DNA from: a virus
Lineage: Duplodnaviria > Heunggongvirae > Uroviricota > Caudoviricetes
Virus record (IMG/VR): IMGVR_UViG_2627853872_000003
DNA length: 45,982 bases
Direction: 5' to 3' (one strand)
The notes below the pieces were generated by a model. That model was not told the origin of the DNA, ran no database searches, and saw only the letters and a program-made list of their open reading frames with translations. Position 1 is the first letter of the stretch. Every line of letters starts with the position of its first letter. The position numbers and the translations under genes are program-made. Shown here in pieces: positions 1,536-17,136 of this stretch.

Positions 1536-1838
1536 ATGCGCACCGACTCCGCCACACCCAAGAGGGCAGGCGGCCCACTATTGCTGACGGATTCAGCCAT
1601 CGGCGCAGCAATCCGCAGCCGCCGAGGCGAGGTTCAACAAGGTGAAGTGGCTAGACGCGCAGGGCTCAATCTCAGCGTGTACTCCCGCATCGAGCGTGGT
1701 GAACGGCCCTGCCGCGTATCAGAAATGGTGAGCATCGCCAAGGCGCTCAACACCCCTGAAGACGAGATGCTCAAACTGATCAGGGAGCACGTCGCCGAGC
1801 AAGAGGCAGTGAAAAGCCTCAGGAAAAGCAATGGCTGA
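1536..1838 (+). CDS. XRE-family HTH regulator (paralog A)
   Basis: IRSRR..QGEVARRAGLNLSVYSRIERGER HTH_3 pattern; AGGAGG RBS. Confidence 0.85.
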   Translation: MRTDSATPKRAGGPLLLTDSAIGAAIRSRRGEVQQGEVARRAGLNLSVYSRIERGERPCRVSEMVSIAKALNTPEDEMLKLIREHVAEQEAVKSLRKSNG

Positions 1839-2457
1839 CAGCGCACTACACATCGGGATCGACATCGACGGAGTGCTGGCCGACCATATGGCTGGAGTCG
1901 CCGCCGTTGGCCAGAGCATGGGGCTGACGATGGACGGATCGGCGAGCGGACCCACCAAATACGGCCTGGTGGAGCCCGGTTGGTTCCCTGACGATGAATC
2001 CGCGTCGAAGGCAATGACCCAGTTGCGTGACAGCGGAGGCCTGCGCAGACTAGCGCTGCTTGACGCCGGAGCTGCTGCGGCTATCAGGCGCTTGCGCATT
2101 GCCGGCCATCGCGTATCGATCGTGACCGCCCGGCATTCCGGCGGACGCTACATACAGTCGCGCGACGAGCAGCGCATCGCGCGCGAAACCATCGACTGGC
2201 TGACAGAACACGAAATCTTGCCCGACGACCTGAGATTTGAGCGGCGCAAGAGCGTGGTCGGGTGCCAGATCTACATCGATGACGCACCACACATCATCGA
2301 GGAACTGCGCCAGAACGGTCGCCGCGCCGTTGTCTACGACCAGCCATACAACAGACACCTACCAGGTGAGCGCGTATCCAATCTGACTGAATTCGCCGAA
2401 TTGGTCCTGGCCGCAGCCGATGAACCCAAAACCGTAGGTGCGAAAGCATCGTTCTAG
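1831..2457 (+). CDS. HAD-family 5'(3')-deoxyribonucleotidase (NT5C-like)
   Basis: IGIDIDGVLAD motif I, IVTAR motif II, YIDD motif IV. Confidence 0.85.
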   Translation: MADSALHIGIDIDGVLADHMAGVAAVGQSMGLTMDGSASGPTKYGLVEPGWFPDDESASKAMTQLRDSGGLRRLALLDAGAAAAIRRLRIAGHRVSIVTARHSGGRYIQSRDEQRIARETIDWLTEHEILPDDLRFERRKSVVGCQIYIDDAPHIIEELRQNGRRAVVYDQPYNRHLPGERVSNLTEFAELVLAAADEPKTVGAKASF

Positions 2458-2528
2458 GCCCACGAACGAGTCTGCTGCCCCTAATCGCTGGCGAGCCCAT
2501 CGGCCAGAGATGTCAGAGTGTCCTGATA

Positions 2529-2545
2529 TTCTCTAAAATAGAGAA
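2529..2545. promoter_or_regulatory. Palindromic operator copy 2
   Basis: TTCTC taaaata GAGAA just before the RBS of 2561. Confidence 0.7.
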
Positions 2546-2560
2546 ATCGATGAGGTGGTC

Positions 2561-2917
2561 ATGAAGCAACTAGCTCGCCAAGAGAGCAGCACTGAGAACA
2601 CGACAACTCAGCCCTACTTCATATGTGGGTTCGACGACGGAGCGAGGTCCACTGCGTGCACCAATCCGGCTCCCGACGATGCCAGTTATTGCAGCCAGCA
2701 CGACCCTGAGGTGGTCACTATCGAACGCAGCTACCTGGTCCGAGTGGTGCAGACCTACACGGGCAGGCTCCCCGAAAGCCGGGAGGAACGCAATGACGAT
2801 GTCGACCAGTTCATCTGCGACAACTTTCTTTTGGTCAGCGACGAAATCGAGACCGTCGACGAGGACGAACTTCAGGTGATCCTGCGACACCCCGATGGAT
2901 CAGCCGAAGCGCTCTGA
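2561..2917 (+). CDS. Hypothetical protein with possible Zn-binding Cys/His
   Basis: GAGG RBS, acidic; C..C..C..H pattern. Confidence 0.7.
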   Translation: MKQLARQESSTENTTTQPYFICGFDDGARSTACTNPAPDDASYCSQHDPEVVTIERSYLVRVVQTYTGRLPESREERNDDVDQFICDNFLLVSDEIETVDEDELQVILRHPDGSAEAL

Positions 2918-2962
2918 AATCTCCATTGACGCCACATCCACAACCCGAGAGGAACTCGGCTC

Positions 2963-3220
2963 ATGGCCAACGCAACGCACACGGTTCGGACAATCACTGA
3001 GCACCGGTTCACCGTGCCATGCGAATCGCCTCACGGCGGAAACTGGCAGGACTTCGACGTCGCCCGCGCGATGGCCGAGAACGTCGCACGTGAGCACGGC
3101 ATCAACACCAGCACCGACGGTTGGTCTCGGCTGCGCTGCGAAGATGATCGGTTGGTGATCGTCTTGACCATTGAAGGGCCGGACGAACTACCACCAGCTC
3201 ATAGGCCTGGCAATGTCTGA
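2963..3220 (+). CDS. Phage-like hypothetical protein
   Basis: Protein-like composition, operon context. Confidence 0.7.
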   Translation: MANATHTVRTITEHRFTVPCESPHGGNWQDFDVARAMAENVAREHGINTSTDGWSRLRCEDDRLVIVLTIEGPDELPPAHRPGNV

Positions 3221-3689
3221 GCCCCCAACACTGCCCCCGTTCAGCGGTTATCCGCTGGATATCTTTGCGCCCATTGACATGGAGCGCCCCGGCCTCCAGC
3301 CACCGGACACTCCCCTGGTTCGCATTCTGCGCCACGGCCGCTCCACCTACGAAGGTGGAGCTGTCAACTGGTTACACGAGGCCCGCGACGAGGTGAGCCG
3401 CCACAGTGAGACGGACTTCTTCGAGCGATCGACTCAGCAGTGGGCACATCCACCCGATGCCGATGGTTGGTTCTACAGCTACTGGAGCTATCCGGCACAC
3501 AGTTGCGATCACGGCTGCAACGAGGAGCCCTTCGTCGATGTACGTGCCGTGCGCTGGGTGAACGCCAACCAGATCCCCGAAGGCGAACGCCACGTCGCGG
3601 GTCGACCGCTGAACCCAGATGGAACGCCGCATCAGCGCCGGCCCCAACCGACTCGTCGCCGAGGCTTCGCCCAAATCGCAGCCAACTAG
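3213..3689 (+). CDS. Hypothetical protein
   Basis: ATG 3213 overlaps upstream stop; Trp/His-rich. Confidence 0.65.
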   Translation: MSEPPTLPPFSGYPLDIFAPIDMERPGLQPPDTPLVRILRHGRSTYEGGAVNWLHEARDEVSRHSETDFFERSTQQWAHPPDADGWFYSYWSYPAHSCDHGCNEEPFVDVRAVRWVNANQIPEGERHVAGRPLNPDGTPHQRRPQPTRRRGFAQIAAN

Positions 3690-3736
3690 ACCCCGCACTT
3701 TCTGCGAATCCGCAATTTCTGCGGTATTGTATCGCC

Positions 3737-4129
3737 ATGGATGACAGATACGACCAGATTCGCGAGGAGCTGCGCCAGGCCGAAAGCGCCACCGCTGCCG
3801 GATCTCTGCCGCATCTTCGCGTTGCGGTCGATTTGGCGAGCCAACTGATCGACGAGCACATGGCCGAAGCTGTCATTGAAGGGGAACTCAGCATTCGCGC
3901 TGCCGGCGCCCAGGTCGGGCTGACCGAGAACTCGGTGGGACCGCGGCTAGCGCGAACCCCGCAACTGAATCCCTACGCACGCGGTGACGGGCGGGTCACC
4001 GCGTCGGAGATCAACCGGGCCCGCTACGACCGCGAGGCCGGAATCCCCGCGCCGACACCAGCGGAGCAGCCCGAACCACTGCGATTCAAACCACGCCGCA
4101 ACAACACTCAACCCAAGGAGACGAAATGA
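3737..4129 (+). CDS. Hypothetical helical protein, possible HTH
   Basis: LSIRAAGAQVGLTENSVGPRL resembles an HTH; stop overlaps next ATG. Confidence 0.7.
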   Translation: MDDRYDQIREELRQAESATAAGSLPHLRVAVDLASQLIDEHMAEAVIEGELSIRAAGAQVGLTENSVGPRLARTPQLNPYARGDGRVTASEINRARYDREAGIPAPTPAEQPEPLRFKPRRNNTQPKETK

Positions 4130-4764
4130 CAAACCCTAACCTCACCTGGATTCTGTTCCTGCTCGACCGTTCCGGATCGATGAGGCAGATCAAGAAGGCC
4201 ACCGAAGAGGGTTTCGATGCCTTTATCACCGAGCAGCGCAAGGCGCCCGGCCAGTGCGCGGTGACACTGGCCCAGTTCGATACCGAATACGAGGTTGTCT
4301 ATTCCCAAAGGCCACTCGATGAGGTTCCGCCGCTGACGCTGGTACCGCGCAACAGCACAGCTCTGCTCGACTCGATGGCCAACCTGATTGTGGAATCTGG
4401 GCTTCAGCTCGCAGAGCTGCCCGAAGCAGAGCGTCCGGGCACAGTGATCGTGGCGATCATGACCGACGGGCTGGAGAACGCAAGTCGCGAGTGGACGCAC
4501 CCCATGATCAAGGAGCTGGTTCAGCAGCAGACCGAGCAGTACGGCTGGCAGTTCTTGTACATGGGAGCCAACCAGGACGCGATCGAGGAGGGCGCCAAGC
4601 TTGGCGTGTCTGGTGACTACTCACTCGATTTCGCCGGGGCCAACGTGGGGCAGGCGATGACTGTCACCTCGCAGAATGTCGTGTCATATCGATCGGCGCG
4701 GTCTACCGATCTGACCGCGTCGATGCCGACATACACCGCCGAACAGCGGCGCTCGTCAAAGTAG
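4126..4764 (+). CDS. von Willebrand factor A domain protein
   Basis: LLDRSGSM MIDAS motif, TALLD, IMTDG.EN.S. Confidence 0.9.
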   Translation: MTNPNLTWILFLLDRSGSMRQIKKATEEGFDAFITEQRKAPGQCAVTLAQFDTEYEVVYSQRPLDEVPPLTLVPRNSTALLDSMANLIVESGLQLAELPEAERPGTVIVAIMTDGLENASREWTHPMIKELVQQQTEQYGWQFLYMGANQDAIEEGAKLGVSGDYSLDFAGANVGQAMTVTSQNVVSYRSARSTDLTASMPTYTAEQRRSSK

Positions 4765-4963
4765 GCACACAGCGACCGGCGTCTGGGGTAGACCCCAGGC
4801 CTGGTCGCTTCTGCATGGTCAGACATGGCTCCCGGGCACAGCGTCTGCTGCGAATTGACCTAGCCGCGGCCTCGCTGCTCCAGGTGCGAATCACAGCAAG
4901 AGACATCACGATGTTGTCACGTCCCTGGCGTGGTTCCCTTGGCTAGCGCGCTACCAGGGGATA

Positions 4964-4980
4964 TTCTCCGCATTAGAGAA
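4964..4980. promoter_or_regulatory. Palindromic operator copy 3
   Basis: TTCTC cgcatta GAGAA 22 nt upstream of XRE paralog B. Confidence 0.65.
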
Positions 4981-5002
4981 TTTCTGGCCCCGAAAGGACC
5001 CC

Positions 5003-5278
5003 ATGCCTGTCTCTCCGCAGCGGAAGTTCGAGCTACAGGATTCAGCTGTCGGTGACGCCCTCAACGCGGCGCGCCGGAAGGCTCAGCTCGAGTTGCAGGA
5101 CGCGGGCCCGCTCGCCGGCCTTGATTGGCGAGTCCTTTCACGCATCGAGCGCGGCGAGCGACCCTGCCGTGTGACCGAGCTCGTGGCTCTCGCTGCCGCC
5201 TATTCACGCCCGCCAGAAACGATCCTGCTCGCAGCGACCGGGGACCCCGAAGCATGGAAAGAGCTTCTCAACCCGTAG
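5003..5278 (+). CDS. XRE-family HTH regulator (paralog B)
   Basis: Shares SRIERGERPCRV exactly with 1536..1838; AAGGA RBS. Confidence 0.8.
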   Translation: MPVSPQRKFELQDSAVGDALNAARRKAQLELQDAGPLAGLDWRVLSRIERGERPCRVTELVALAAAYSRPPETILLAATGDPEAWKELLNP

Positions 5279-6213
5279 CAGTCCGATTCCCCGGAGTACG
5301 GCACCAACCCAGTCTCGCCGATTGCATCGTCGATGGTTCCAAGCAAATCGCCTGCAGTCTCGTTCGGTATCTCTATAACCGAGAACAAATCGATTGCGCC
5401 AACATCTTTAGCGTTGGCCAGACGCTACACCGCCTGATCAGCTGAAACCACACTCCGCGGCCAAACGCAGCACCTCACCTCGCCGAATTTAGCTGGGCAA
5501 TGTCGCTGACCAGTGATACCGTCAGCTCGTGACTTTGATACGCCTCGACCAGCGAGTTGCCGGGATGCAGACAGCATCACCGGCGGCTTTGTCGTGGCTG
5601 GAATCGGTCATCAAGACCCAAGAGCTCTCCACGGCCACGAGCCACGATTTCGGCCAGCCCAGATGCTTCCGGTCACCCCGATATGACCTATCCGCCCTCC
5701 CCATGGGCGAGCGCCCCGATCGGAAGCAAGGGCCAGGGAACAAATCTCATAAAAATCTCAATATTTGCGTTTCCGCTGCTAGGGATGTCCGCTGACACTC
5801 CCTTAGTTCAGCACGCTTTGAATTACCTTGCCACACAGCCGATTTAGGTAAATTGCGCTTTACAAGACTCGTATTCCGTAGCACCATCATGCTCAGCACG
5901 AACGAGAAGATCGCTCGATTCGCTGCCGCACGCGGGACGCTAAGGCGTTCTCCTGCCAGGACTTTGAAAACTCCAGAGTGTGTGATGCACCGCCCCTCAC
6001 GAGGGTCGATGAACAAGCCGTCTCGGCGCCCGGGGCTCCCAAGAGAGTCAATGACCGGTCAGCCAGTCGAGCATGCTCATCCTCAATCCTCCTGTCGGGG
6101 CGGTACGCCGGGCGCCGCCATGCGCCCGGCCCTCATGCCAGCTTTCCGTCAGGGAGCAGGCATGAGTTCCGTTTGGTTGATTTGGTGTAAATCCATTGCA
6201 ACCAAACGGATAT

Positions 6214-6287
6214 GCGCCTCTAGCTCATCTGGCCAGAGCACCTGACTCTTAATCAGGGGGTACGGGGTTCGAGACCCCGGGGGCGTA
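6214..6287 (+). tRNA. tRNA-Lys(CTT)
   Basis: Full cloverleaf; loop CT-CTT-AA. Confidence 0.9.
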
Positions 6288-6773
6288 CGTAGCGCGACGT
6301 GCGGTGAAGTAGACCGCACACGTACCAGCGGGTGGTGCCGGGCACTGGGTAGGCGGCCAGAGTGCCGCAACCGACCATCAATCGGCTCCTCCCCTCTCGC
6401 AGGTCTTCCGGTGTCAGAGCCCGGTTGGGGTGTGGGGACGGCACCGATCGGCGTGAGATATACCGCCAACCGTCCACAGCTCGATTGCTCCGATCCCACT
6501 CCTCCTTCGCAAGGCGGGGCGGCGCGGCATCTCACCGCGAAACGACAACCCGTTCACCCAGTAGGGGCACCCAACGGTGAGCGGCACGGTGCAGGGTAAG
6601 ACACCTTCGGGTGGGTCGAATCAGAGAGGGACACCGGCACACCGGTGTGGCGCCGTGGACAGACACGGGGGCGATAATGCAGCCCTTGACGGAGCAGGAG
6701 CCGCCTCGTTCTGGCGGCAGGCTAGAAATCCGAACACCGAGTGGTCCCGTCGGGCGCAACAATCCGGGACGCT
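6288..6773 (+). ncRNA. Candidate large structured ncRNA, family unknown
   Basis: No credible ORF; many perfect hairpins including a cUUCGg tetraloop (6602-6613). Confidence 0.5.
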
Positions 6774-6845
6774 GCGAGCGTGGTCCAATGGCTACGACCT
6801 CAGACTTCCAATCTGATGATGCGGGTTCGATTCCCGTCGCTCGCT
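6774..6845 (+). tRNA. tRNA-Gly(TCC)
   Basis: Cloverleaf; loop CT-TCC-AA. Confidence 0.9.
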
Positions 6846-6998
6846 CTTGGTGCCCACGACGGTGGGTAGGGACAGAGGACGGTCCCTTCGCCACGGGGTT
6901 CGATTCCCTGCGTTGGCTTCGGCCCGCGGTGCGGAACTGGTGATGCCAGCTGGTCGGTGCCAGGTACCGGATCACTGCCGACCTTCTCCAAACATCTT

Positions 6999-7083
6999 GG
7001 CCCTGTGGCGAAACATGGCAGCCGCGCCGGATTCAAACTCCGGTGTCCGACAGGACGTGTGGGTTCGATTCCCTCCAGGGCCA
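6999..7083 (+). tRNA. tRNA-Leu(CAA)
   Basis: Cloverleaf with long variable arm; loop TT-CAA-AC. Confidence 0.9.
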
Positions 7084-7101
7084 CCGCGTCCGAATGAACA
7101 A

Positions 7102-7173
7102 TGCCTTGTGGGGTAATCGGCAGCCCACTGGATTTTGGCTCCGGGAGTTCAGGTTCGAGCCCTGGCGAGGCAG
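7102..7173 (+). tRNA. tRNA-Gln(TTG)
   Basis: Cloverleaf; U1-A72; loop TT-TTG-GC. Confidence 0.9.
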
Positions 7174-7199
7174 CAGGTCGGCGGACCCGAAACGCACAT

Positions 7200-7271
7200 T
7201 GCCCGGTGGTCTAACGGCAGGACTCCTGATTCTGGATCAGGTCGGTGGAGGTTCGAATCCTCCCTGGGCAG
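7200..7271 (+). tRNA. tRNA-Gln(CTG)
   Basis: Cloverleaf; loop TT-CTG-GA. Confidence 0.9.
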
Positions 7272-7384
7272 CATCGCGAATCCCACTGTGCGGAGTTAAT
7301 CGCCCGCGTGGCAGTGGTCTTCGCAGGTGGCGTTCCAGGAGCATGTTCGACGCTATGGCCCCGTTCCAGGATCACCACCACAAC

Positions 7385-7459
7385 GCCCTGATAGCTCAGT
7401 CCGGCCAGAGCATCTGCCTTGTAAGCAGAGGGTCGCCGGTTCGAATCCGGCTTGGGGCT
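7385..7459 (+). tRNA. tRNA-Thr(TGT)
   Basis: Cloverleaf; loop CT-TGT-AA. Confidence 0.9.
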
Positions 7460-7479
7460 CTCCCCCACCTTCGGGTGAT

Positions 7480-7554
7480 GCCGCCATAGCTCAGTGGCAG
7501 AGCGTTTCCTTGGTAAGGAAAAGGTCTCGGGTTCAACCCCCGATGGTGGCTCCA
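7480..7554 (+). tRNA. tRNA-Thr(GGT), CCA encoded
   Basis: Cloverleaf; loop TT-GGT-AA. Confidence 0.9.
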
Positions 7555-7694
7555 CGGTTGTCGGTGACCACCCGCTGCGCGAGCGGAATGCGGAACCGTC
7601 AGTCCCGGCGCCCCCGCCCATGCAGGGGTCTTCGATGGCCGCGCCGTGCCGGGCAAGCGAAGGTGCACCTCGCCGGAAGGCATGGGTTTCCGAT

Positions 7695-7770
7695 GTGGAT
7701 GTAGCGCAGCTGGTAGCGCGTCTCGTTGCCAACGAGAAGGCCGCGGGTTCGAATCCCGTCTTCCACTCCA
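7695..7770 (+). tRNA. tRNA-Gly(GCC), CCA encoded
   Basis: Cloverleaf; loop TT-GCC-AA. Confidence 0.9.
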
Positions 7771-7904
7771 GCACTTCTCCCCTTCGCGGGAGGTGTGGGG
7801 GCTGGTTCCGGCCCCGGCGTCAACGGAGGGTTCGCGTGGACCCTGTACCGCCCGATTGAGGTTGGCGGACGCAGAGCGCAGGTAACCCCTGTGGCAGGAC
7901 ACAT

Positions 7905-7978
7905 GCCCCTCTGGCCCAACTGGCAGAGGCGTCGGCTTCAGGTGCCGAAGGTTCCCGGTTCGAATCCGGGGAGGGGTA
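7905..7978 (+). tRNA. tRNA-Leu(CAG) with short variable loop
   Basis: Cloverleaf; loop TT-CAG-GT; 5-nt variable region. Confidence 0.85.
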
Positions 7979-7984
7979 CAACGA

Positions 7985-8758
7985 GGCATGGCTCGATAAC
8001 CGGAGGTGACTCCGGGAAAGGTGGGTGTGACACCCCGCCGCCACATCTCTACGGGGATGTGGCACACCATGCACGGCTCCCGCAAGGAGTACCTGGGCAA
8101 CCGGGTGCCACAGCGGTCCGAGTTCGACGGCAGAAGGGACGGCGAGTGCTCACCTTCGCGCCGGCGCTACGCAGCGCCGGCACCGTCACGTGAACGAGGA
8201 TCGCCAGCGGGGTGCGAGGGAACACAAGTCCAAGCTCGCCAGGCGAGGGCGGTTCCCATGACCTCGGAATCCGGTGGGCGCATCGGTGCACGGCGAAGAG
8301 CGCAATGGCTTGGCGGCCAAGCGCGAGGGTGTGAAGCATTCTGTGGCTCAAAAGGTTACGGAACTTCGTGGGAAAGCACATCCTCAGTCAACAAGCACTA
8401 GCTCAATTGGCAGAGCAATCGTTTCTGGAACGGTAGGTCGCCGGTTCAAGTCCGGCGTGTTTATCCCAAGCGAAAGACTTTCCCTGCCACGGCTCGAAAG
8501 CGCCGTAATCCTCGGCCCTGCAAAGGGAACCGAGGCAGTTGTGAACTCGCAAGGTGATCAGCTGTCCGTGAGGCGGTAGAGCAATACAGAGGTTAGCTCC
8601 CTCTGTGCGAATCGAAACCTGCGGAGTAGGTCGTGGCATGACGAGTGGCTGCCGCAAGCAGCCCGGCGTGACGGTTACCAGTGGAAGCTGGATGGATAAG
8701 TCGGGAAACCATAATCCGATGAGAGACCGTTGCTTTGGGGCCTAATCTCAGCCCCAAA
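7985..8758 (+). ncRNA. Probable GOLLD lncRNA (~770 nt; ends approximate)
   Basis: ORF-poor, many GNRA hairpins; motifs I associate with GOLLD from memory: GGCTCAAAAGGT (8345-8356), GCGAAAGA (8470-8477), GCTGCCGCAAGCAGC, terminal 8-bp stem with loop CTAATCTCA (8734-8758); tRNA-array context is typical. Confidence 0.7.
8392..8464 (+). tRNA. tRNA-Gln(CTG)-like element nested in the putative GOLLD
   Basis: TAGCTC D-arm, loop TT-CTG-GA, T arm GCCGG-TTCAAGT-CCGGC; weak acceptor stem, no CCA. Confidence 0.65.
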
Positions 8759-8765
8759 TAACCAA

Positions 8766-8840
8766 TAGCTCGTAGCTCAATTGTGGCAGAGCGCGCGACT
8801 GTTAATCGCGTGGTTGGAGGTTCGACTCCTCCCGGGCTAG
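8766..8840 (+). tRNA. tRNA-Asn(GTT)
   Basis: Cloverleaf; loop CT-GTT-AA. Confidence 0.9.
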
Positions 8841-9004
8841 CGCTGCCGAGTAGGGACGCGTACCTACGGTGGTGACCGCTGAAAAGGAGCAGTGACCGTG
8901 CCCGGCTTGGTACGGCGGCGTGGGGGGCGCCGTAGTCCTCGGGGGTATCCCCCGGCACATCGGAAAGCGTCGAGTCCACAGTGTGTTCGACAGACACCTC
9001 TTTA

Positions 9005-9077
9005 GGGGGCTTAGCTCATCTGGTAGAGCGCCTGCCTTGCAAGCAGGAGGTGGCGGGTTCAAGCCCCGTAGCTTCCA
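9005..9077 (+). tRNA. tRNA-Ala(TGC)
   Basis: Cloverleaf; G3:U70. Confidence 0.9.
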
Positions 9078-9148
9078 CTCCCCGTCAGAATCGGGCGCAC
9101 CCGCGCCATCCCGGCCCGCCCCACAACACGGAAAGGAGGCGCGGCGCC

Positions 9149-9616
9149 ATGACAATGATCGTGCCCGCCCCCGCTGTGCGGGTGTTCAACGCCGACTATT
9201 CGTTCCTCGACACCGTGCGCTGGCAAGACGCGGTCGGCATGCTTCTACGCGACGTGGCGTACGCGCTCGAGGCCCACGTGCCCCCGCGCATCGTCCGCTC
9301 GCCGAACGCGGAGGTGGAGGTGCCCAAGTCGCTTCTGCTGACTCGGTACGCCCCTGTCCCCTACCGGCGTGATCCGGAGTTCGCCTCGCGTGCCGAGATT
9401 CTGCGCAGGGACAACTACCTGTGCCAGTACATCGGCTGCGGAGCCAAGGCCACCACGATCGATCACGTGTTCCCGCGTTCGCGCGGCGGCGCACCGTCAA
9501 CGTGGACGAACCAGGTAGGCGCGTGCGAGCCGTGCAACGGCCGCAAGGCAGACCGCACGCCGGAGGAAGCGGGTATGAAGCTGATCCGTGAACCGTTCCG
9601 ACCAGCGCACATCTGA
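9149..9616 (+). CDS. HNH endonuclease
   Basis: RRDNYLCQYIGC..TIDHVFPRSRGG..N...ACEPCNGRK; AAGGAGG RBS. Confidence 0.92.
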   Translation: MTMIVPAPAVRVFNADYSFLDTVRWQDAVGMLLRDVAYALEAHVPPRIVRSPNAEVEVPKSLLLTRYAPVPYRRDPEFASRAEILRRDNYLCQYIGCGAKATTIDHVFPRSRGGAPSTWTNQVGACEPCNGRKADRTPEEAGMKLIREPFRPAHI

Positions 9617-9660
9617 CGACGGGGAACAGACCCGTGACGGCTCGGAGAGACGAGTTTCCT

Positions 9661-9735
9661 GGTCCGTTCGTCTAGTTGGCCCAAGACACCTGGTTCTCAA
9701 CCAGAAGATCACCGGTTCGAATCCGGTACGGACTA
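9661..9735 (+). tRNA. tRNA-Glu(CTC)
   Basis: Cloverleaf; loop TT-CTC-AA. Confidence 0.9.
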
Positions 9736-9872
9736 CGTTAAGTGGCGTTGAAATCGGGTTTGATTCCCGCAGGCCGATGGTGTGCCTGGTTGGTGTGGTG
9801 CCGCACGTCATGTGAGAGCCGTGAAAATCGGCGAAAACTCTACCGCTGCTGATCAATCCGCAAGTAGAGCAT

Positions 9873-9948
9873 GGTCCCGAAGCTGAACTGGTTCAAGCGC
9901 TCGGTTGAAGCCCAAGAGATGGCGGTTCGATTCCGTCCGGGACCACCA
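9873..9948 (+). tRNA. tRNA-Phe(GAA), CCA encoded, atypical (A8, anticodon-stem mismatch)
   Basis: Perfect acceptor stem; loop TT-GAA-GC. Confidence 0.8.
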
Positions 9949-9950
9949 GT

Positions 9951-10038
9951 GTCGATGTGGCGGAACGGAATACGCACTAGCTTGAGGTGCTAGCGCCCTA
10001 TTACGGGTATGCAGGTTCGACTCCTGTCATCGACACCA
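9951..10038 (+). tRNA. tRNA-Leu(GAG), CCA encoded
   Basis: Cloverleaf with long variable arm. Confidence 0.9.
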
Positions 10039-10039
10039 A

Positions 10040-10112
10040 GCCGCGGTAGCTCAGTAGAGAGAGCACCTGCCTACGAAGCAGGGGGCCGGGGGTTCAAATC
10101 CCTCTCGCGGTA
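10040..10112 (+). tRNA. tRNA-Arg(ACG)
   Basis: Cloverleaf; loop CT-ACG-AA. Confidence 0.9.
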
Positions 10113-10133
10113 CTGAGACTGACAGTCTCTCTA

Positions 10134-10207
10134 CGACTCATAGCTCAGCTGGTTAGAGCGCCGCTCTGATAAGGCGGAGGTCTGGGGTTCAAGTCCCTGT
10201 GAGTCGA
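10134..10207 (+). tRNA. tRNA-Ile(GAT)
   Basis: Cloverleaf; loop CT-GAT-AA. Confidence 0.9.
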
Positions 10208-10252
10208 CAGCCGCTATTCTCTGCAAGGGCACCCAGCGTCAGGAGAGTTCCT

Positions 10253-10618
10253 GTGGGTAATCACCTCCCGGAGACGAAACGTCGGCTTCAAGCCGAATAT
10301 CGATCACGCAATGTAGAGAAGCTACGTTGCGCAAGCAGACAGCGGCGAGCTGCAATCAAAGATGAGGCCCTAACGCAATACGGCAGATGCTGTGCCTGTT
10401 GCGGATTCGACAATCCTTTGGCACTCGTTGTAGACCACGTGGATGACAACGGGGCTGAGGAGCGAAAGGCTCTCGGCGGGCAGCATTTCGCAGGATGGAA
10501 CTTCTACTCACATTTGCGGAGGCAAGGGTGGCCCGCTGGCTATCAGACTCTCTGCGCGAATTGCAACATGATCAAGCAGCAGACCTTGCTGCAGAATGCC
10601 GGTGTAGCTCAGCGGTAG
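10253..10618 (+). CDS. HNH-like endonuclease; stop lies inside tRNA-Asp
   Basis: CACCG..LVVDHV..LCANCNMIK; AGGAG RBS before GTG 10253. Confidence 0.8.
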   Translation: MGNHLPETKRRLQAEYRSRNVEKLRCASRQRRAAIKDEALTQYGRCCACCGFDNPLALVVDHVDDNGAEERKALGGQHFAGWNFYSHLRRQGWPAGYQTLCANCNMIKQQTLLQNAGVAQR

Positions 10619-10669
10619 AGCGTCCGCCTGTCGAGCGGAGGGCCGCGGGTTCAAGTCCCGTCACTGGCG
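10598..10669 (+). tRNA. tRNA-Asp(GTC)
   Basis: Cloverleaf; G73. Confidence 0.9.
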
Positions 10670-10697
10670 CCCGTGGTGCATTTTGAGCACCGTTTTC

Positions 10698-10774
10698 AGT
10701 CTCGTAGCTCAGTTGGAAGAGCACCTGGTTTACACCCAGGGTTGTCGGGGGTTCGAATCCCTCCGGGACTACCA
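10698..10774 (+). tRNA. tRNA-Val(TAC), CCA encoded
   Basis: Cloverleaf; loop TT-TAC-AC. Confidence 0.9.
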
Positions 10775-10775
10775 T

Positions 10776-10856
10776 GCCGGCACGGCGCAGAGGCGAGGCG
10801 CAGCGGCCTGTAAAGCCGTTCTTTCGGGTGAGTGGGTTCAATTCCTTCTGCCGGCA
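10776..10856 (+). tRNA. tRNA-Tyr(GTA), C8
   Basis: Cloverleaf with extended variable region; loop CT-GTA-AA. Confidence 0.85.
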
Positions 10857-10887
10857 CCGGGCCCGCGTCGGCCTCAACGACGCGAAA

Positions 10888-10961
10888 CGGGATGTGGCGC
10901 AGCTTGGTAGCGCATCTGCTTTGGGAGCAGAGGGTCGCACGTTCAAATCGTGTCATCCCGA
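10888..10961 (+). tRNA. tRNA-Pro(TGG)
   Basis: Cloverleaf; C1-G72. Confidence 0.9.
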
Positions 10962-10975
10962 CAAACAAGATTTCA

Positions 10976-11048
10976 GCCCGCGTAGCTCAGTGGATAGAGC
11001 GCCTGCCTCCGAAGCAGGAGGCCCCGAGTTCAACTCTCGGCGTGGGTA
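10976..11048 (+). tRNA. tRNA-Arg(CCG)
   Basis: Cloverleaf; loop CT-CCG-AA. Confidence 0.9.
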
Positions 11049-11071
11049 CTATTCCTGATCAGGGAGAACAC

Positions 11072-11145
11072 TGCCCCTATGGTGTAAGTTGGTAGCACTC
11101 TTGGCTTTTACCCTTGAAACGTCGGTTCGAACCCGGCTGGGGCAC
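11072..11145 (+). tRNA. Degenerate tRNA-Lys(TTT)
   Basis: D and T arms intact; two U-U mismatches in anticodon stem; acceptor register irregular. Confidence 0.6.
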
Positions 11146-11195
11146 GGTGAGAACGACACAAATTTTGCGCCGAACTCTTTGTCGGATGCAGTTTT

Positions 11196-11627
11196 ATGAT
11201 CGAGACCATGTGCAAGTGTGGCGAATGTAAGACCTGCAAGCGACGAGTAGTCGATCGCCGTAGGTACGAGAATAATCCCCTTCGCCGCGAGATGATCGCA
11301 GACAGGTGCGAGCGTAACCGTGCTGCGAAGCGTGCAATAGTCGAGCAGTACCTTGTCACCCATCCGTGCGTGGATTGCGGTGAGGCTGATCCGATTGTTC
11401 TTGAATTCGACCACGTTCGGGGCGAAAAGGCATCCAACATCTCGGACTTAGTCGTATCCGGCGGCCTGAGGAAGTTGATGGATGAGATTGCGAAGTGTGA
11501 TGTCCGCTGCGCCAACTGTCATCGACGAGCTACCTATATGCGACGACTGAAGGATGCGGGGCTCGGGCGGTACAGCAATCCGTACGAACTCCAATCCCAA
11601 CGAGTTTCACATGCGTCCGTGGTCTAG
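11196..11627 (+). CDS. HNH-like endonuclease; stop lies inside tRNA-Trp
   Basis: PCVDCGEADPIVLEFDHVRG..KCDVRCANCHRR. Confidence 0.85.
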   Translation: MIETMCKCGECKTCKRRVVDRRRYENNPLRREMIADRCERNRAAKRAIVEQYLVTHPCVDCGEADPIVLEFDHVRGEKASNISDLVVSGGLRKLMDEIAKCDVRCANCHRRATYMRRLKDAGLGRYSNPYELQSQRVSHASVV

Positions 11628-11685
11628 CGGCTAAGACGCCGGTCTCCAAAACCGGAAGACGCAGGTTCAAGTCCTGCCGGGCGTG
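11613..11685 (+). tRNA. tRNA-Trp(CCA)
   Basis: Cloverleaf; G73. Confidence 0.9.
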
Positions 11686-11751
11686 CAAATATCCGACCAT
11701 CGAACGGTGGGCGGATCCAGAGGTCGCGGCGACGGTCGCAGCCTCGTCCAT

Positions 11752-11824
11752 GGCGTCGTGCTGTGATGGCTAGGCACCCGGGTTTTCACCTCGGGACGCG
11801 CGGGTTCAATTCCCGTCGGCGCTA
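11752..11824 (+). tRNA. tRNA-Glu(TTC)
   Basis: Cloverleaf with weak D arm; loop TT-TTC-AC. Confidence 0.8.
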
Positions 11825-11998
11825 CTCGATTTTTCGGCGTGTCGCGACGCCTGGCTGGCCCTTGACGCCGACCTCGAACAAGCTGAATCCGCGAGATCCC
11901 GTGTCAACGCCAACCCCCCGTTATCACCTGGCGAAGGCATCTCCACGACGCCGCATAGTCTCGGACGAGAGGTGACCTGCACGGGATCTCGCGCATAT

Positions 11999-12070
11999 GC
12001 CCCTGTAGCTCAGTGGACAGAGCGGCACGGTCCTAACGTGACGGCCGGCGGTTCGAATCCGTCTGGGGCG
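11999..12070 (+). tRNA. tRNA-Arg(CCT), atypical
   Basis: Loop GT-CCT-AA (G32); acceptor mismatch and shortened T stem. Confidence 0.7.
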
Positions 12071-12205
12071 CGGGCGGCACGACGATGTCGCACACCTCTC
12101 GCATGAGCAGTCTCGGGGCTAGCACCGAACTGCGAGTAATGGCCCGCACAATCTTCGGGAATGATTGGTGCACGGCTTTAGCGGGCAGCATCGGGCGTGA
12201 GTATT

Positions 12206-12281
12206 GGGCTGTTGGCACAGTTGGTAGCACGCTTCCGTGGCGCGGGAGAGGTCACCGGTTCGATCCCGGTACAGTCCACCA
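12206..12281 (+). tRNA. tRNA-Ala(GGC), CCA encoded
   Basis: G3:U70; loop GT-GGC-GC; D stem GCAC/GCAC partly mismatched. Confidence 0.8.
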
Positions 12282-12388
12282 CTTCGATAATCGGCGTGTC
12301 GCGCGGTCGCAGTGGATTCGAGAGTTCTTGCAGCGGAGGCTATATGCCAGTGCTCGAACCGCACCAATCGCCGAACCTTGGAGGGCAT

Positions 12389-12592
12389 ATGAAACTCTGC
12401 GTCACCGCTGTGATCGCGGCGGCACCCTTGTTGATCTTCGCTCCATCCGCCAGCGCGGGGCCGCGCTGCCTCCCAGACCAAACAGCCTGCTGCCCCAGCG
12501 GCTACATAGTGGCCGAACACCCCAGCGGTGCGATGACGTGCTCTCCTGACGTCGATGCCCAGTCCGCCGCCCGAAACAGCATCCCGATTTGA
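12389..12592 (+). CDS. Small secreted Cys-rich protein
   Basis: GGAGG RBS; signal peptide ending ASA-G; 4 Cys in mature part. Confidence 0.7.
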   Translation: MKLCVTAVIAAAPLLIFAPSASAGPRCLPDQTACCPSGYIVAEHPSGAMTCSPDVDAQSAARNSIPI

Positions 12593-12652
12593 TCGGTAGA
12601 CACTCCACCTCCGCAGTGTGCGCCGCTGCGATTCAGAGGTGTCAGGCGCAGG

Positions 12653-12727
12653 AGCGGAGTAGGGCAGCTCGGTCAGCCCGCGTGGCTCATAACCACGAAG
12701 TCGCAGGTTCGAATCCTGCCTCCGCCA
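12653..12727 (+). tRNA. tRNA-Met(CAT), A1xC72 mismatch (initiator-like)
   Basis: Cloverleaf; loop CT-CAT-AA. Confidence 0.85.
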
Positions 12728-12794
12728 CGACGTCCCACATGAGCTGCAACAAGGGATAACAGAGGGCACGACAACACCGATGGTGGTATGAGAC

Positions 12795-13040
12795 ATGGCT
12801 AATGATCCTGGCCGACGAACTGCGGAAAAACGCTCGTGGCGTCGTGAGATTGACGTGGAGGCAACAGCCCAGGTCGAGCCGTTCAACCCGTACGCGCACT
12901 GCATAAGCCTGGTGGAGTGCCGCACAACCTGCGTCTATGTGGGCCAGGGGTGTTCAGAGGTGCACAGGAATCACTATCGAGGTCTCACTGCTGATGAAGG
13001 GGTTCCACCACCCCTAACTCAGCGAGTCAACGCTCCGTAG
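12795..13040 (+). CDS. Hypothetical protein; stop lies inside tRNA(CAT)
   Basis: Fills an inter-tRNA gap; no recognisable domain. Confidence 0.4.
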   Translation: MANDPGRRTAEKRSWRREIDVEATAQVEPFNPYAHCISLVECRTTCVYVGQGCSEVHRNHYRGLTADEGVPPPLTQRVNAP

Positions 13041-13103
13041 CTCAGTTGGTAGAGCTCCGCACTCATAATGCGGAGGTCGCGGGTTCAAGTCCCGCCGGAG
13101 CAA
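13031..13103 (+). tRNA. tRNA(CAT), Met or Ile2, C1xA72 mismatch
   Basis: Cloverleaf; loop CT-CAT-AA. Confidence 0.85.
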
Positions 13104-13185
13104 CGAGTTCTAGCCCCTTGGGGGCCTGAACATTTGGAGGGTGCTTCCGACGAATGGCGCCGTCGATGTGGCGCTGTTCTGCCCT

Positions 13186-13635
13186 TCAGAACTGAATGTT
13201 GGCGCTCACCGAGTATCGATCGAACTGGGAATGTCCGAGCAGGCCGTCGAGAAGCCGGGCACGCTGCATCTCGGGCTCGCTGACCTTCATCCCGATCACG
13301 CCTTTGCCGTCTTCGCTTATGGTGTTTCCGCTCGGCAGAACACAGCGACCGCCATCGACGCTCAAAACAAGATCACGCTGAATGGGCACACCGTTGTATC
13401 GGATGTCGAGCCAGTGGCCGTAAATCTTCTTATCTGGGAATCCGCCAGATTCGGACCATGTCTCGGTCCAAGGCTCACCATCGAGATGGTCCTTGCCCCA
13501 GGCAAGGCTAATTGCGGCGTCCTCGTGAAACACGTACAGCTGCCGGTGACCATCCTCAGTGGTCACATTCTCGACCTTCGTCCAGTCGTCTGGAGAACTC
13601 GCCTCAACCTTTGTGAGGATCGAAAAGTAGTTCAC
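13186..13635 (-). CDS. Hypothetical protein antisense to the array
   Basis: Globular, protein-like 149-aa ORF. Confidence 0.75.
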   Translation of the reverse strand: MNYFSILTKVEASSPDDWTKVENVTTEDGHRQLYVFHEDAAISLAWGKDHLDGEPWTETWSESGGFPDKKIYGHWLDIRYNGVPIQRDLVLSVDGGRCVLPSGNTISEDGKGVIGMKVSEPEMQRARLLDGLLGHSQFDRYSVSANIQF

Positions 13636-13743
13636 GGCTGAAATCTAACCAGGACCAGTCGGATATCACCTGGCTTACGCGAATCTGGCCTGTGCACCTT
13701 TCTTCATCACATCCTGAACCGCCGGATAGCCTCCGGCAGAAAT

Positions 13744-13833
13744 GGAAGACCCACCCGAGGGCTGGCGACGGGCGCTGTCTTGAAAACAGTTGGGGCCGAG
13801 AGGCCCGTGTCGGTTCGATCCCGACGTCTTCCG
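13744..13833 (+). tRNA. tRNA-Ser(TGA), atypical D region
   Basis: Acceptor GGAAGAC/GTCTTCC, long variable arm, G73. Confidence 0.85.
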
Positions 13834-13968
13834 CGCAACCCAACCGGCTCACAACCGCACGGGAACCGCTCGGCTGAGATGCCGGGTGCGGGTGGCTCCG
13901 CCTGCGTGTCCGGGGACAGACGGCGCGTAGACAGCGGCCCGGGCTGGGCCTGTCCCCCGGCTCGCCAT

Positions 13969-14044
13969 GGCGGCGTTAGCTCAGCGGCAGAGCCCCGGTT
14001 TGTGGAACCGGTAGTCGTCGGTTCGATCCCGACACGTCGCCCCA
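13969..14044 (+). tRNA. tRNA-His(GTG) with G-1:C73 and CCA
   Basis: Cloverleaf; His identity pair encoded. Confidence 0.92.
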
Positions 14045-14125
14045 CTGTTCGGTGCGCACTTGGCGGCTAAGCCCACAATCGCGCCGGACACAACCAACCA
14101 CGATGTTGCGACCGATCCTTAGGAC

Positions 14126-14416
14126 ATGCCAACCACCATCTACCCGACCATCCACGGTGATGATCGGAGTCTCGAAGCGATAATCGCCTCGTTCACCGTC
14201 AACGCGACGCTACGTAGCTATCTCGAGGATTTCTTGCCGGGACGACGTGACTTCAACCGGCCATCACACCTCGTCAAGTTTGACGGCGGTTGGATTCTCG
14301 TCTTTTACGTGGACACAGCTGACGACACCGGGTATCTCAAATTCGATTGCTCCGGTGGATCGTATGAGTTCATCGACGCCTACAGAGCACATGCCCTGAC
14401 GGGACGCTGGCTCTGA
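14126..14416 (+). CDS. Hypothetical protein
   Basis: AGGA RBS; protein-like composition. Confidence 0.65.
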   Translation: MPTTIYPTIHGDDRSLEAIIASFTVNATLRSYLEDFLPGRRDFNRPSHLVKFDGGWILVFYVDTADDTGYLKFDCSGGSYEFIDAYRAHALTGRWL

Positions 14417-14526
14417 GACGAGGTCAGCATGATGCACTGGACGGAACCTGACAGGTAAACGTTGTCGACCAGGGTTAGTGCACTAGGCGAGGATCGGGCG
14501 CAGTGCGACCGCGTCTGCACGAGCAT

Positions 14527-14599
14527 GCCTCCGTGGCGCAACGGATAGCGCACCGGCTTTCTACTCCGATGGTTGCCGGTTCGAATCCGGCCGGGGGCA
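14527..14599 (+). tRNA. tRNA-Arg(TCT), weak anticodon stem
   Basis: Good acceptor, D and T arms; 3 of 5 anticodon-stem pairs. Confidence 0.7.
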
Positions 14600-14679
14600 C
14601 CGAGTTCGACACCGACACCGGCGTGTCGTCACCGTCTCGGCACAACAACAGAGCGTGCCGGACAGCATCGAAAGATCCA

Positions 14680-14757
14680 CGGGCTGTGGGAAAGCTTGGT
14701 CAATCCGCCTGGCTGGGGGCCAGGAAATCGCGCGTTCGAATCGCGCCAGCCCGACCA
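14680..14757 (+). tRNA. tRNA-Pro(GGG), CCA encoded
   Basis: Cloverleaf; loop CT-GGG-GG. Confidence 0.9.
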
Positions 14758-14803
14758 GCGTGGCGGAAAGCCTGTCGCGCGAAAACACACGAAGGGAGGA
14801 GCC

Positions 14804-15994
14804 GTGAGCACACAATTCCCCGTCACGATGCGCGGGGCAGACAACGTCGCACTCTGGGCGTACGAGCATGAGATCGAGCCGGCCGCCCTGAACCAGTTGC
14901 GCAACATCGCCGCTCTCGGGCCGGTTGCCAAGGTAGCAGTGATGCCAGATGTCCACTTGGGCAAGGGCGCCACGGTCGGATCCGTCATCGCGATGCGAGA
15001 TGCGGTCTCCCCCTCGGCGGTCGGCGTCGATATCGGTTGTGGTGTCTGCGGCGTCCGAACGTCTCTTTCAGCCCACGATCTCCCGGATGATCTGTCCGGG
15101 CTGCGCTCCGCGGTGGAGGCAGCGATTCCGGTCGGGTTCAACTCGCACGAGCGGGCCGTGAACGTCCAGCGTCTCGGGCTGCGCACTGCTGACCACGATC
15201 GACTCTGGCAGTCGGCCAAGGCGATTTACGCCAACGTTGACCCGTTCGGTGGTCGTGCCCCGCGCCAGCTCGGCACGCTCGGTGGCGGCAACCATTTCCT
15301 CGAGGTGTGCCTGGACGGCGAGGACCGCGTATGGCTTACCCTCCATTCAGGATCGCGTAACGTCGGCAAGGAGCTGGCTGAGCGACACATCACGGTCGCA
15401 AAGGGCCTGCCGCACAACGCAGATCTACCGGATCGAGACCTGGCGTTCTTCTACGCGAACACCCCGGAGATGGACGCTTACCTCTACGACCTGACGTGGG
15501 CGCAGCAGTACGCCGCGCTGTCGAGGCAGGTGATGATGGCGCTGTTCCGCACCGTACTCAGCGAGGCCTTCGCAGGAGTGCGGTTCACCGACGAGATCAA
15601 CGTGCACCACAACTACGTGCGCCGCGAGACTGTTGGCGGTGAGGAGTTCATCGTCACCCGCAAGGGGGCTATTCGCGCAGGATCTGACGAACTGGCGCTG
15701 ATCCCCGGCAGCATGGGTACGGGCTCGTACGTGGTGCGCGGTTTGGGTAACCCTGAGTCGTTGTTCTCAGCCTCGCACGGGGCGGGTCGCAAGATGAGCC
15801 GCTCCGCCGCCAAACGGACATTCACCGTCGAGGATCTGGCAGAACAGACCGCCGGCATCGAGTGCCGAAAGGACGCTGGTGTCGTCGACGAGATTCCCGG
15901 GGCCTACAAGGACATCCACGGTGTCATCGCCGCTCAGGACAACCTCGTCGCCGTAGTGGCGCACCTGCGCACCATCCTCTGTGTGAAGGGCTAA
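14804..15994 (+). CDS. rtcB: RtcB RNA 3'-phosphate/5'-OH ligase
   Basis: MPDVH, GVDIGCG, LGTLGGGNHF, HSGSR, HHNY, IPGSMG, SHGAGR, DEIPGAYKDI; GGGAGGA RBS before GTG 14804. Confidence 0.97.
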   Translation: MSTQFPVTMRGADNVALWAYEHEIEPAALNQLRNIAALGPVAKVAVMPDVHLGKGATVGSVIAMRDAVSPSAVGVDIGCGVCGVRTSLSAHDLPDDLSGLRSAVEAAIPVGFNSHERAVNVQRLGLRTADHDRLWQSAKAIYANVDPFGGRAPRQLGTLGGGNHFLEVCLDGEDRVWLTLHSGSRNVGKELAERHITVAKGLPHNADLPDRDLAFFYANTPEMDAYLYDLTWAQQYAALSRQVMMALFRTVLSEAFAGVRFTDEINVHHNYVRRETVGGEEFIVTRKGAIRAGSDELALIPGSMGTGSYVVRGLGNPESLFSASHGAGRKMSRSAAKRTFTVEDLAEQTAGIECRKDAGVVDEIPGAYKDIHGVIAAQDNLVAVVAHLRTILCVKG

Positions 15995-16166
15995 GTCGCA
16001 TAGCGGAAACCCCTGATGGGTTGAGACAGCATGCGCGAGGTGCGGCACGTCGATGCCAGCGTGTCGTACCTCGTGCTTGGCGACAGTGCGGCGGCATGGC
16101 ACCGTTGTGACAAGCACAGGCGCGTGCCTCGTCATCTGATGCAGACCCACGACAGGAGAGCCGATC

Positions 16167-16394
16167 GTGAATATGCCGTCCAGCAACAAGGTCATCGAAG
16201 AGCTCGGGGACTATGTCAACGACCCGGCCAATGCTTCAGTTATGGATGTCTTCCGGGAGATCGGCGAGCGGGGACGGATGTTGCACACCGCGGAGATCGC
16301 TTCTGATCCGGAGTGGTTCGCACGGAGATTCGTTGCGTGGATTCGAGCAGGGGCGCCGGCATGCAGCAGACAAGCTCTCAACCCCGACAACTAG
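16167..16394 (+). CDS. Hypothetical protein
   Basis: AGGAG RBS; protein-like. Confidence 0.5.
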   Translation: MNMPSSNKVIEELGDYVNDPANASVMDVFREIGERGRMLHTAEIASDPEWFARRFVAWIRAGAPACSRQALNPDN

Positions 16395-16483
16395 CTCAAC
16401 AGTCCAACTGACGAGTTGTGTGCTCTGCCACCACGCCGTGTACCAGCGTGGGCACGGAATCACTTCAATGTGCGGAGACAAGA

Positions 16484-16723
16484 ATGCGGAAACCCGATGG
16501 TCGATCAATGGCGGCCCTCAAGAAACTTGAGCAGCAGAACAACCGACTCAAGTCCTCCTATCACACCGCGAGCGAGAAGCGTGCGATGAAGGCCGCACGC
16601 GAGAAGCGGCAAGCTACGCGAGCCGAAGCTAGTGCGGAAGAGCTTCAGGAGATGTTGGACGCCGATATACGTTGGCTCGACAGTCTTGGCCCCAGGCTCA
16701 GCCAAAAAAGGTCTGACACCTAG
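16484..16723 (+). CDS. Small basic helical protein
   Basis: GGAG RBS; charged coiled-coil-like sequence. Confidence 0.5.
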   Translation: MRKPDGRSMAALKKLEQQNNRLKSSYHTASEKRAMKAAREKRQATRAEASAEELQEMLDADIRWLDSLGPRLSQKRSDT

Positions 16724-16788
16724 CCTTCGGCAACACTTCCCAACTTGAACATTGAGCTGGCCCAGCTCCACCCGCGTCAGCGGGTTCT

Positions 16789-16862
16789 GTCTCCGTGGCC
16801 GAGTGGTTAGGCAGCGGCCTGCAAAGCCGTCTACGCCGGTTCAAATCCGGCCGGAGACTCCA
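16789..16862 (+). tRNA. tRNA-Cys(GCA), CCA encoded
   Basis: Cloverleaf; U73. Confidence 0.92.
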
Positions 16863-16884
16863 CACTGGTCCACCGGCCAGCAGC

Positions 16885-16958
16885 GCCCCCATAGCTCAGT
16901 TGGCCAGAGCGGCTCACTCGTAATGAGCAGGTCACCGGTTCGATTCCGGTTGAGGGCT
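16885..16958 (+). tRNA. tRNA-Thr(CGT)
   Basis: Cloverleaf; loop CT-CGT-AA. Confidence 0.9.
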
Positions 16959-16984
16959 CAAACGGACACGTGCAGTGTCTGATT

Positions 16985-17058
16985 CGGGGTATGGGAAAGC
17001 TTGGCAATCCGCCTCGTTCGGGACGAGGAGACCGGCGGTTCAAATCCGTCTACCCCGA
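16985..17058 (+). tRNA. tRNA-Pro(CGG)
   Basis: Cloverleaf; loop TT-CGG-GA. Confidence 0.9.
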
Positions 17059-17136
17059 CGTTGGTTTTGCACGCTACCTAGCAGTATCTTTTGGATAGAT
17101 GATAGTATCTGCCAAACAGATACCGGAGGAGTGGAC

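Follow-up and report, generated by a model that had tools for sequence, protein, structure and literature searches.

Within the window, the whole stretch of DNA analysed here (45,982 nucleotides), an array of 37 tRNAs spans positions 6214–17904 and also carries GOLLD RNA, an HNH endonuclease and RtcB. As delimited by ARAGORN, tRNA-Lys(CTT) at 6214–6288 and tRNA-Gly(TCC) at 6774–6846 bound a gap of 486 bases. The following features are relevant to the interpretation of this gap:

5903–6213, plus strand: array leader, with an RNA 5′ end near 5903, a boxA-like motif at about 5964–5988 and strong hairpins downstream
6214–6288, plus strand: tRNA-Lys(CTT), the first tRNA of the array (tRNA prediction and Rfam)
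6289–6478, plus strand: module A, a structured RNA candidate of about 190 nt (alignment of nine sequences)
6479–6773, plus strand: module BC, an ornate RNA of about 293 nt and the accumulating species (RNA-seq, homologs and covariation)
6774–6846, plus strand: tRNA-Gly(TCC), at whose 5′ end an RNase P cut would create the 3′ end of BC
7990–8740, plus strand: GOLLD RNA of the same array (Rfam RF02032 at 8324–8754, 200 bits; RNA ends at 7990/7991 and 8740)

The array HNH protein shares 97% identity with a Mycobacteroides abscessus protein cluster, and the gap is 95% identical to M. abscessus loci that encode an HNH protein of that cluster. Close homologs of the HNH gene (70–73%) also occur in Tsukamurella chromosomes (L003, L122–L126) with no tRNAs nearby, and those of L122–L126 adjoin thiC. 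The tRNA order of the window array is common to plasmid pCBMA213_1, the array of which is of the G2 type; arrays of this sort have been reported from 315 genomes of the M. abscessus complex, the non-coding genes listed for them being tRNA, tmRNA and one structured RNA of 430 nt (PMC5966550).

Upstream of the gap, the leader (5903–6213) is a further unannotated structured RNA: the segment 5940–6213 folds with a z-score of −5.8 relative to shuffles, the leader is 66–75% conserved among distant arrays, and 33 molecules end at position 5903 in RNA-seq run X21. It is retained even by arrays that contain neither GOLLD nor A nor BC. This retention, together with the motif at about 5964–5988, which we take to resemble the boxA of rRNA leaders, suggests rrn-type antitermination of the array. 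Downstream of tRNA-Gly, the spacer 6847–6998 is likewise conserved (88% in Mycobacterium sp. D16Q14, 69% in Tsukamurella), and contains a tRNA-like segment (6852–6917) with a weak match to mascRNA (E 0.19).

The initial annotation described the gap as one RNA of about 490 nt, delimited by tRNA ends, tiled with helices, devoid of a credible ORF and unlike any known family. The boundaries are correct, in that tRNA-Lys stops at 6288 and tRNA-Gly starts at 6774, and direct inspection of the sequence located all six helices (6299–6319, 6341–6366, 6602–6613, 6631–6648, 6700–6718 and 6744–6770). Homologs differ from the window by indels of 1–2 nt and their substitutions lack triplet periodicity, so the overlapping ORFs are not real. 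Rfam gave no match inside the gap at the gathering threshold; at E ≤ 10 a chance 50-nt antisense snoRNA match (E 1.4) was the only one, the M. conceptionense copy had no match even at E ≤ 10, and the environmental copies had nothing credible. As a single sequence, the gap does not fold better than chance: the minimum free energy has a z-score of +0.11, and the five perfect stems of at least 6 bp compare with 2.6 ± 1.6 in shuffles, 61 of 500 of which reach that number. The helix density of the single sequence is thus at chance level, and support for structure comes from the homologs. A folding energy no better than that of shuffles would also fit a GC-rich spacer that evolves neutrally and has its helices by chance, or else a small hidden ORF, a reading to which we return below.

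Orthologous arrays were collected via the HNH gene and by DNA search, and the Lys–Gly gap was excised from each. M. abscessus and M. conceptionense have gaps of 486–488 nt composed of A, B and C; L110 and Mycobacterium sp. D16Q14 have A and C (235–239 nt); M. aubagnense and pCBMA213_1 have A only (177–191 nt); and environmental contigs (L160–162) have B and C only, in 293 nt that begin directly at the tRNA-Lys end. The 706-nt gap of Tsukamurella consists of an ORF fragment, half of A, and then B and C, and the remaining arrays have either 35–79 nt or an ORF of unrelated sequence, and a remnant of C is often left. Each module keeps its fold when alone: three A-only copies have 0–2 broken pairs out of 48, and the BC-only copies 5 out of 71. 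The gap is therefore two separate RNA modules placed side by side, A (6289–6478) and BC (6479–6773), of which BC is dispensable, being missing from many arrays. In the HNH-gene tree, both branches of the deepest split between these arrays include the A+BC form, which indicates that the A+B+C arrangement is probably ancestral and that the modules were lost independently of each other; this ordering is read from sequence, and the HNH gene may itself recombine.

Module BC is the better conserved of the two. When aligned to the window, BC copies from M. abscessus are 99% identical (GOLLD 96%, A 89–91%), those from M. conceptionense and Tsukamurella 88%, compared with 85% for GOLLD, 70–76% for the flanking tRNAs and 66–69% for the leader, and those of the environmental lineage 69%. 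Scanning the alignment for helices gave a model with 71 pairs, including five crossing (pseudoknot or loop) pairings, organized as follows:

6487–6648, plus strand: 5′ domain, in which helix 6487–92/6587–92 closes a junction with hairpins near 6499–6519, 6523–39 and 6550–84
Loop 6530–33/6624–27 and 6543–46/6615–18, plus strand: crossing pairings of the 5′ domain, with one double-sided change each
6602–13 and 6631–48, plus strand: terminal hairpins of the 5′ domain, downstream of the junction
6653–6735, plus strand: 3′ domain, with hairpin 6653–68, pseudoknot 6669–72/6682–85 with 6678–80/6694–96, and pseudoknot 6700–05/6713–18 with loop 6708–11/6732–35
6737–6770, plus strand: module C, an H-type pseudoknot with an A-rich loop (6737–40/6750–53 and 6744–49/6765–70)

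The closing helix 6487–92/6587–92 is invariant except for a U–U in M. abscessus. The helices of the 3′ domain show two double-sided changes each, and the clearest case of covariation is loop 6708–11/6732–35, which occurs in three distinct complementary sequence versions. Module C terminates 3 nt short of tRNA-Gly; in arrays with B it hardly varies at all, and in arrays without B its fold is kept with changed pairs. An alternative pairing of 6749–54 with the 5′ end of BC (6480–85) is indistinguishable from the module C pairing, and invariant unpaired stretches are found at both ends of BC.

In the BC alignment, 97% of cells are paired and 19 of the 71 pairs show double-sided change, compared with 1–3 in slid-partner controls. 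As this model was derived from the same sequences used for counting, we repeated a blind helix search on four lineages against block-shuffled columns, and obtained 14 compensated pairs in nine helices where chance gave 4.9 ± 1.9 (maximum 11; 0 of 150 shuffles reached the observed value). The covariation represents 3–4 independent lineages, with most double changes on one environmental branch. We regard BC as very probably a real conserved structured RNA, and the sequence comparisons indicate that it is under strong selection. For BC, the neutral spacer or hidden small ORF is contradicted by conservation above that of the tRNAs, significant covariation, frameshifting indels and the RNA enrichment described below; as an explanation of the gap it is scarcely tenable, though neutrality may apply in part to A.

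The alignment model of module A, all on the plus strand, comprises:

6292–96/6396–6400 and 6299–6319, plus strand: closing helix and hairpin
6322–26/6341–45, 6331–36/6374–79 and 6337–40/6383–86, plus strand: double pseudoknot
6348–66, 6408–24, 6429–45 and 6450–67, plus strand: hairpins
6436–39/6472–75, plus strand: terminal pseudoknot

This model has 48 pairs over nine sequences, with 96.7% of cells paired and double-sided changes in 7 of the 48 pairs, and A is 80–87% conserved in four other lineages. Blind tests were mixed: depending on the rows and criteria used, 0, 2, 16, 18 or 100 of 150 shuffles reached the observed value. A is probably a structured RNA, with less certainty than BC. In the A-only arrays, its terminal pseudoknot ends a few nucleotides before tRNA-Gly. 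The loop of hairpin 6348–66 (6353–6361) carries a GGCC palindrome in most copies, broken in one; self-complementary loops of this sort bridge OLE dimers. No 6-nt palindrome is common to all copies. Returning to the six helices of the initial annotation, covariation supports five, four of them (6299–6319, 6602–6613, 6631–6648 and 6700–6718) from the alignment helix scan and 6744–6770 as judged by hand. The sixth, 6341–6366, is broken in M. conceptionense, and the alignment prefers 6322–26/6341–45 and 6348–52/6362–66.

Expression was evaluated from one stranded RNA-seq run (X21, of which 18% was read) in 161-nt bins. The sense depth is 22 over 6288–6448 (A), 600 and 455 over 6449–6770 (BC), 13–125 over the following tRNA and spacer bins, and 1607–9307 over GOLLD. 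In this run BC accumulates, at 6–8 times the array background, and A does not; the A and BC bins differ in depth by more than 20-fold. Antisense depth over BC is approximately one eighth to one fifth of the sense depth, as for GOLLD. The sequenced strain diverges most in A (87–95 of 101 letters per read), which may lower the depth of A somewhat; most simulated A reads stay above the 88% cut-off, and strain divergence is thus unlikely to be the cause of the 20-fold difference. BC is probably a stable ornate RNA of roughly 293 nt, excised from the tRNA precursor.

These data bear on whether a single 486-nt RNA comprising A and BC could be the functional unit, with the shorter forms as decaying or minimal variants. 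M. abscessus and M. conceptionense share the A–B–C order and the length of 486–488 nt, both of which look ancestral, and RNA-derived contigs cross the A/B junction, which is not in itself proof of a single transcript. However, each module is found intact without the other in natural arrays and the depths of the two are far apart in run X21, and we therefore consider a single functional RNA of this length very unlikely. The description of the gap as an undescribed, non-coding, ornate RNA of a GOLLD-bearing array thus holds, as does its probable liberation through tRNA processing, except that two modules take the place of one species.

We propose, as an overall account somewhat more probable than not, that the mobile array carries two RNA modules, of which BC is excised and acts in trans as a compact multi-pseudoknot RNA. 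The array would be transcribed on the plus strand from upstream of the leader, the strand and the 5′ end at 5903 being observed. RNase P would cut at the 5′ end of tRNA-Gly, leaving pseudoknot C 3 nt from the end of BC, where it may block 3′ exonucleases and cap the 3′ end. By analogy, the terminal knots of A and C could each cap a 3′ end after RNase P cleavage in the manner of the MALAT1 triple helix, which lies upstream of mascRNA and serves as a 3′-end cap. The 5′ end of BC would be exposed by 3′ maturation of tRNA-Lys plus decay or cleavage of A; in the environmental lineage, BC begins at the tRNA-Lys end itself. By sequence comparison, BC folds via five covarying tertiary pairings, and it accumulates in the one run. 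It may then serve as a structural RNA like GOLLD and ROOL, for instance as a scaffold or as a nuclease or protein decoy, alone or as an oligomer, in support of the tRNA supply of the element. A, the second structured RNA, would be less stable and would most likely act in cis on processing of the first tRNA. The alternatives considered here overlap in part.

One alternative is that BC acts in cis only, serving the processing or stability of the tRNA precursor, and that it piles up through its nuclease-resistant knots and has no role in trans. BC does lie between tRNAs, pseudoknot C persists in arrays without B, and decay resistance alone can explain the enrichment. On the other hand, arrays with a gap of 35–42 nt retain the same tRNAs, and a 293-nt fold that is more conserved than GOLLD seems excessive as a spacer, so that we regard a purely cis-acting BC as rather unlikely.

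The trans-acting account raises the question of a relation to GOLLD, which the initial annotation had proposed as a partner of the gap RNA. The RNA-seq ends of GOLLD (5′ 7990/7991, 3′ 8740) give approximately 750 nt, of which Rfam covers only the part matched at 8324–8754, and the 5′ ends of GOLLD and BC begin with the same 7 nt. Among the loci read, GOLLD sequence is present in 8 of 8 lineages with A or BC and in none of five array types without both. Of these five, one represents a large deletion; in the others, the elements disappeared at separate sites. The cases are non-independent, and the co-loss may only reflect general array shrinkage. In M. aubagnense (L134 3983–5771) both are damaged: GOLLD is interrupted by a transposase gene, and A has two 8-nt deletions and 15 of its 48 pairs broken. 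Co-occurrence agrees with a partnership, but intermolecular helices between BC and GOLLD are at chance level, with no covarying pairing above chance. Nor is A or BC a GOLLD paralog, as judged by the absence of a match to RF02032, of homology to the variable 5′ domain and of a match in cluster M phage loci; with filters off, models R2 and R3 scored no higher than 5.9 and 8.4 bits elsewhere in the array and did not match its own GOLLD. Within GOLLD, a tRNA-like element (8391–8468) has an anticodon that varies among arrays (Gln, Ile, Arg or undetermined). A set of 76 reads from run X21 returns from 8390 to 8346, a step of 45 nt, and carries nine extra letters, and in 2806 reads a loose purine-rich end follows 8390; the 8346–8390 reads may reflect strain variation, another copy of GOLLD or ligation at the embedded tRNA, RtcB being encoded by the array.

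Wider searches recovered no homologs outside Mycobacteriaceae-type arrays in the collections covered. Using blastn, nothing credible for A or BC was found in phages, and pCBMA213_1 was the sole plasmid match. Pattern scans of viral contigs gave no matches or chance matches only; one metagenome scan gave two chance matches inside a coding gene, its pattern being too strict for the M. conceptionense and environmental copies and thus uninformative on absence. In samples of Mycobacteriaceae and Actinomycetes genomes, only three arrays were found, which is not proof of absence elsewhere, and the Logan contigs of runs X1, X3 and X7 speak to presence only. Covariance models were run on 80 HNH-linked viral loci, many of which have tRNA arrays, on cluster M phages and on the Arthrobacter and Frondihabitans plasmid arrays, and detected no homolog in any of them. 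The A and BC families appear undescribed in Rfam 15 and the literature searched; an earlier mention in the Morgado 2020 GOLLD paper is possible.

We also compared A and BC with defined RNA classes, and agree with the initial annotation that they are unlike tmRNA, RNase P RNA, SRP RNA and Ms1, the defining features and/or Rfam matches being absent. For tmRNA, ARAGORN returned none, there is no T arm or 3′ signature, indels break every frame, and the BC model has no match to phage or host tmRNA. RNase P RNA is rejected by the lack of a P4 signature, an Rfam match and a host paralog match; group I and II introns by the lack of P7 and S elements, domain V and an Rfam match; and SRP RNA, Ms1 and Y RNA (YrlA) by the lack of an Rfam match, with no TROVE among 20 window ORFs scanned. 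A descriptor for HDV-like (theta) ribozymes, a nested P1–P2–P3–L3–P1.1 fold with a catalytic C in J4/2, found nothing in six copies, and Rfam gave no match. The T-box riboswitch likewise has no Rfam match, and the look-alike of UGGNACC in A departs from it at a single position and pairs internally. Likenesses to twister, HDV, T-box, FMN/B12 T-loop, group II domain V and tmRNA tag either did not survive the tests that define these classes or amounted to short motifs only.

BC or A could also be a new type of ribozyme that, for instance, self-cleaves at the A/B junction or aids tRNA release. This would be in keeping with the dense nested pseudoknots and the invariant unpaired stretches at both ends of BC, and, no tRNA lying between A and BC, some cut must part them. 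Yet host RNases E and J could make this cut and would be enough for it, and neither an Rfam ribozyme match nor a hammerhead, HDV-like, twister, group I/II or RNase P signature was found; we give a ribozyme only a slim chance. Another alternative is that BC binds the ribosome or tRNA as a tmRNA-like or IRES-like mimic, or senses a ligand. The three tandem pseudoknots recall tmRNA PK2–4, in related cluster M phage arrays a tmRNA follows the first tRNA, and GOLLD was recovered with ribosomes in a pull-down (PMC12286853). Against this, BC has no tRNA-like domain or tag frame, its model misses phage and host tmRNA, and there is no downstream ORF for riboswitch control; no sigma-70-type promoter or terminator was found within the gap. 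Ribosome, tRNA or ligand binding is thus unlikely as the role of BC. Also improbable is that BC represents a new class of functional RNA machine, either an array-processing ribozyme or an RNA-only oligomer assembling with GOLLD or tRNAs, on a mobile element common in clinical M. abscessus. BC is a small, well-bounded, expressed neighbour of GOLLD-type RNAs that offers a 293-nt structural target. The natural deletion variants in culturable mycobacteria (A only, BC only, both, neither) make its function directly testable, and the arrays carry more non-coding RNAs than the described tRNA, tmRNA and GOLLD genes.

Finally, BC can be set beside known systems. Cluster M mycobacteriophage tmRNA resembles it in position after the first tRNA and in having a series of pseudoknots, but differs by its tRNA-like domain and tag frame and is not matched by the model; in these phage arrays (L166 6828–7203; L167 5929–6290) the tmRNA is followed by approximately 300 nt that resemble degenerate tRNAs and have no relation to A or BC. 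T4 RNAC and RNAD are stable small RNAs from a phage tRNA region with no assigned role (PMC3014915, PMC9697503). As proposed for BC, they are passenger RNAs of a tRNA precursor, whereas host and element differ, and the likeness is one of description; BC has no Rfam match. ROOL, OLE, ARRPOF and raiA share ornate RNA-only folds with BC, and ROOL also the setting near tRNA islands, but none matches A or BC in Rfam even at E ≤ 10. ARRPOF, at 255 nt with four pseudoknots and a dimeric state, is similar in size to BC (PMC12990946). GOLLD (RF02032) is also large, pseudoknot-rich, non-coding, situated between tRNAs of the same arrays, abundant and without an assigned role (PMC12286853, PMC5966550, PMC6582537); at approximately 750 nt it is longer than BC (about 293 nt), which lacks an embedded tRNA and reaches a several-fold lower abundance in run X21. 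GOLLD and ROOL, both large ornate tRNA-array RNAs, form RNA-only cages without assigned function. BC shares with RNAs of this type the non-coding multi-pseudoknot fold with covariation (weaker in A), the location in a tRNA array on a mobile element and, in one run, the accumulation of the RNA. A and BC appear to be new RNA families of a known kind, that of GOLLD, ROOL and T4 RNAC and RNAD.
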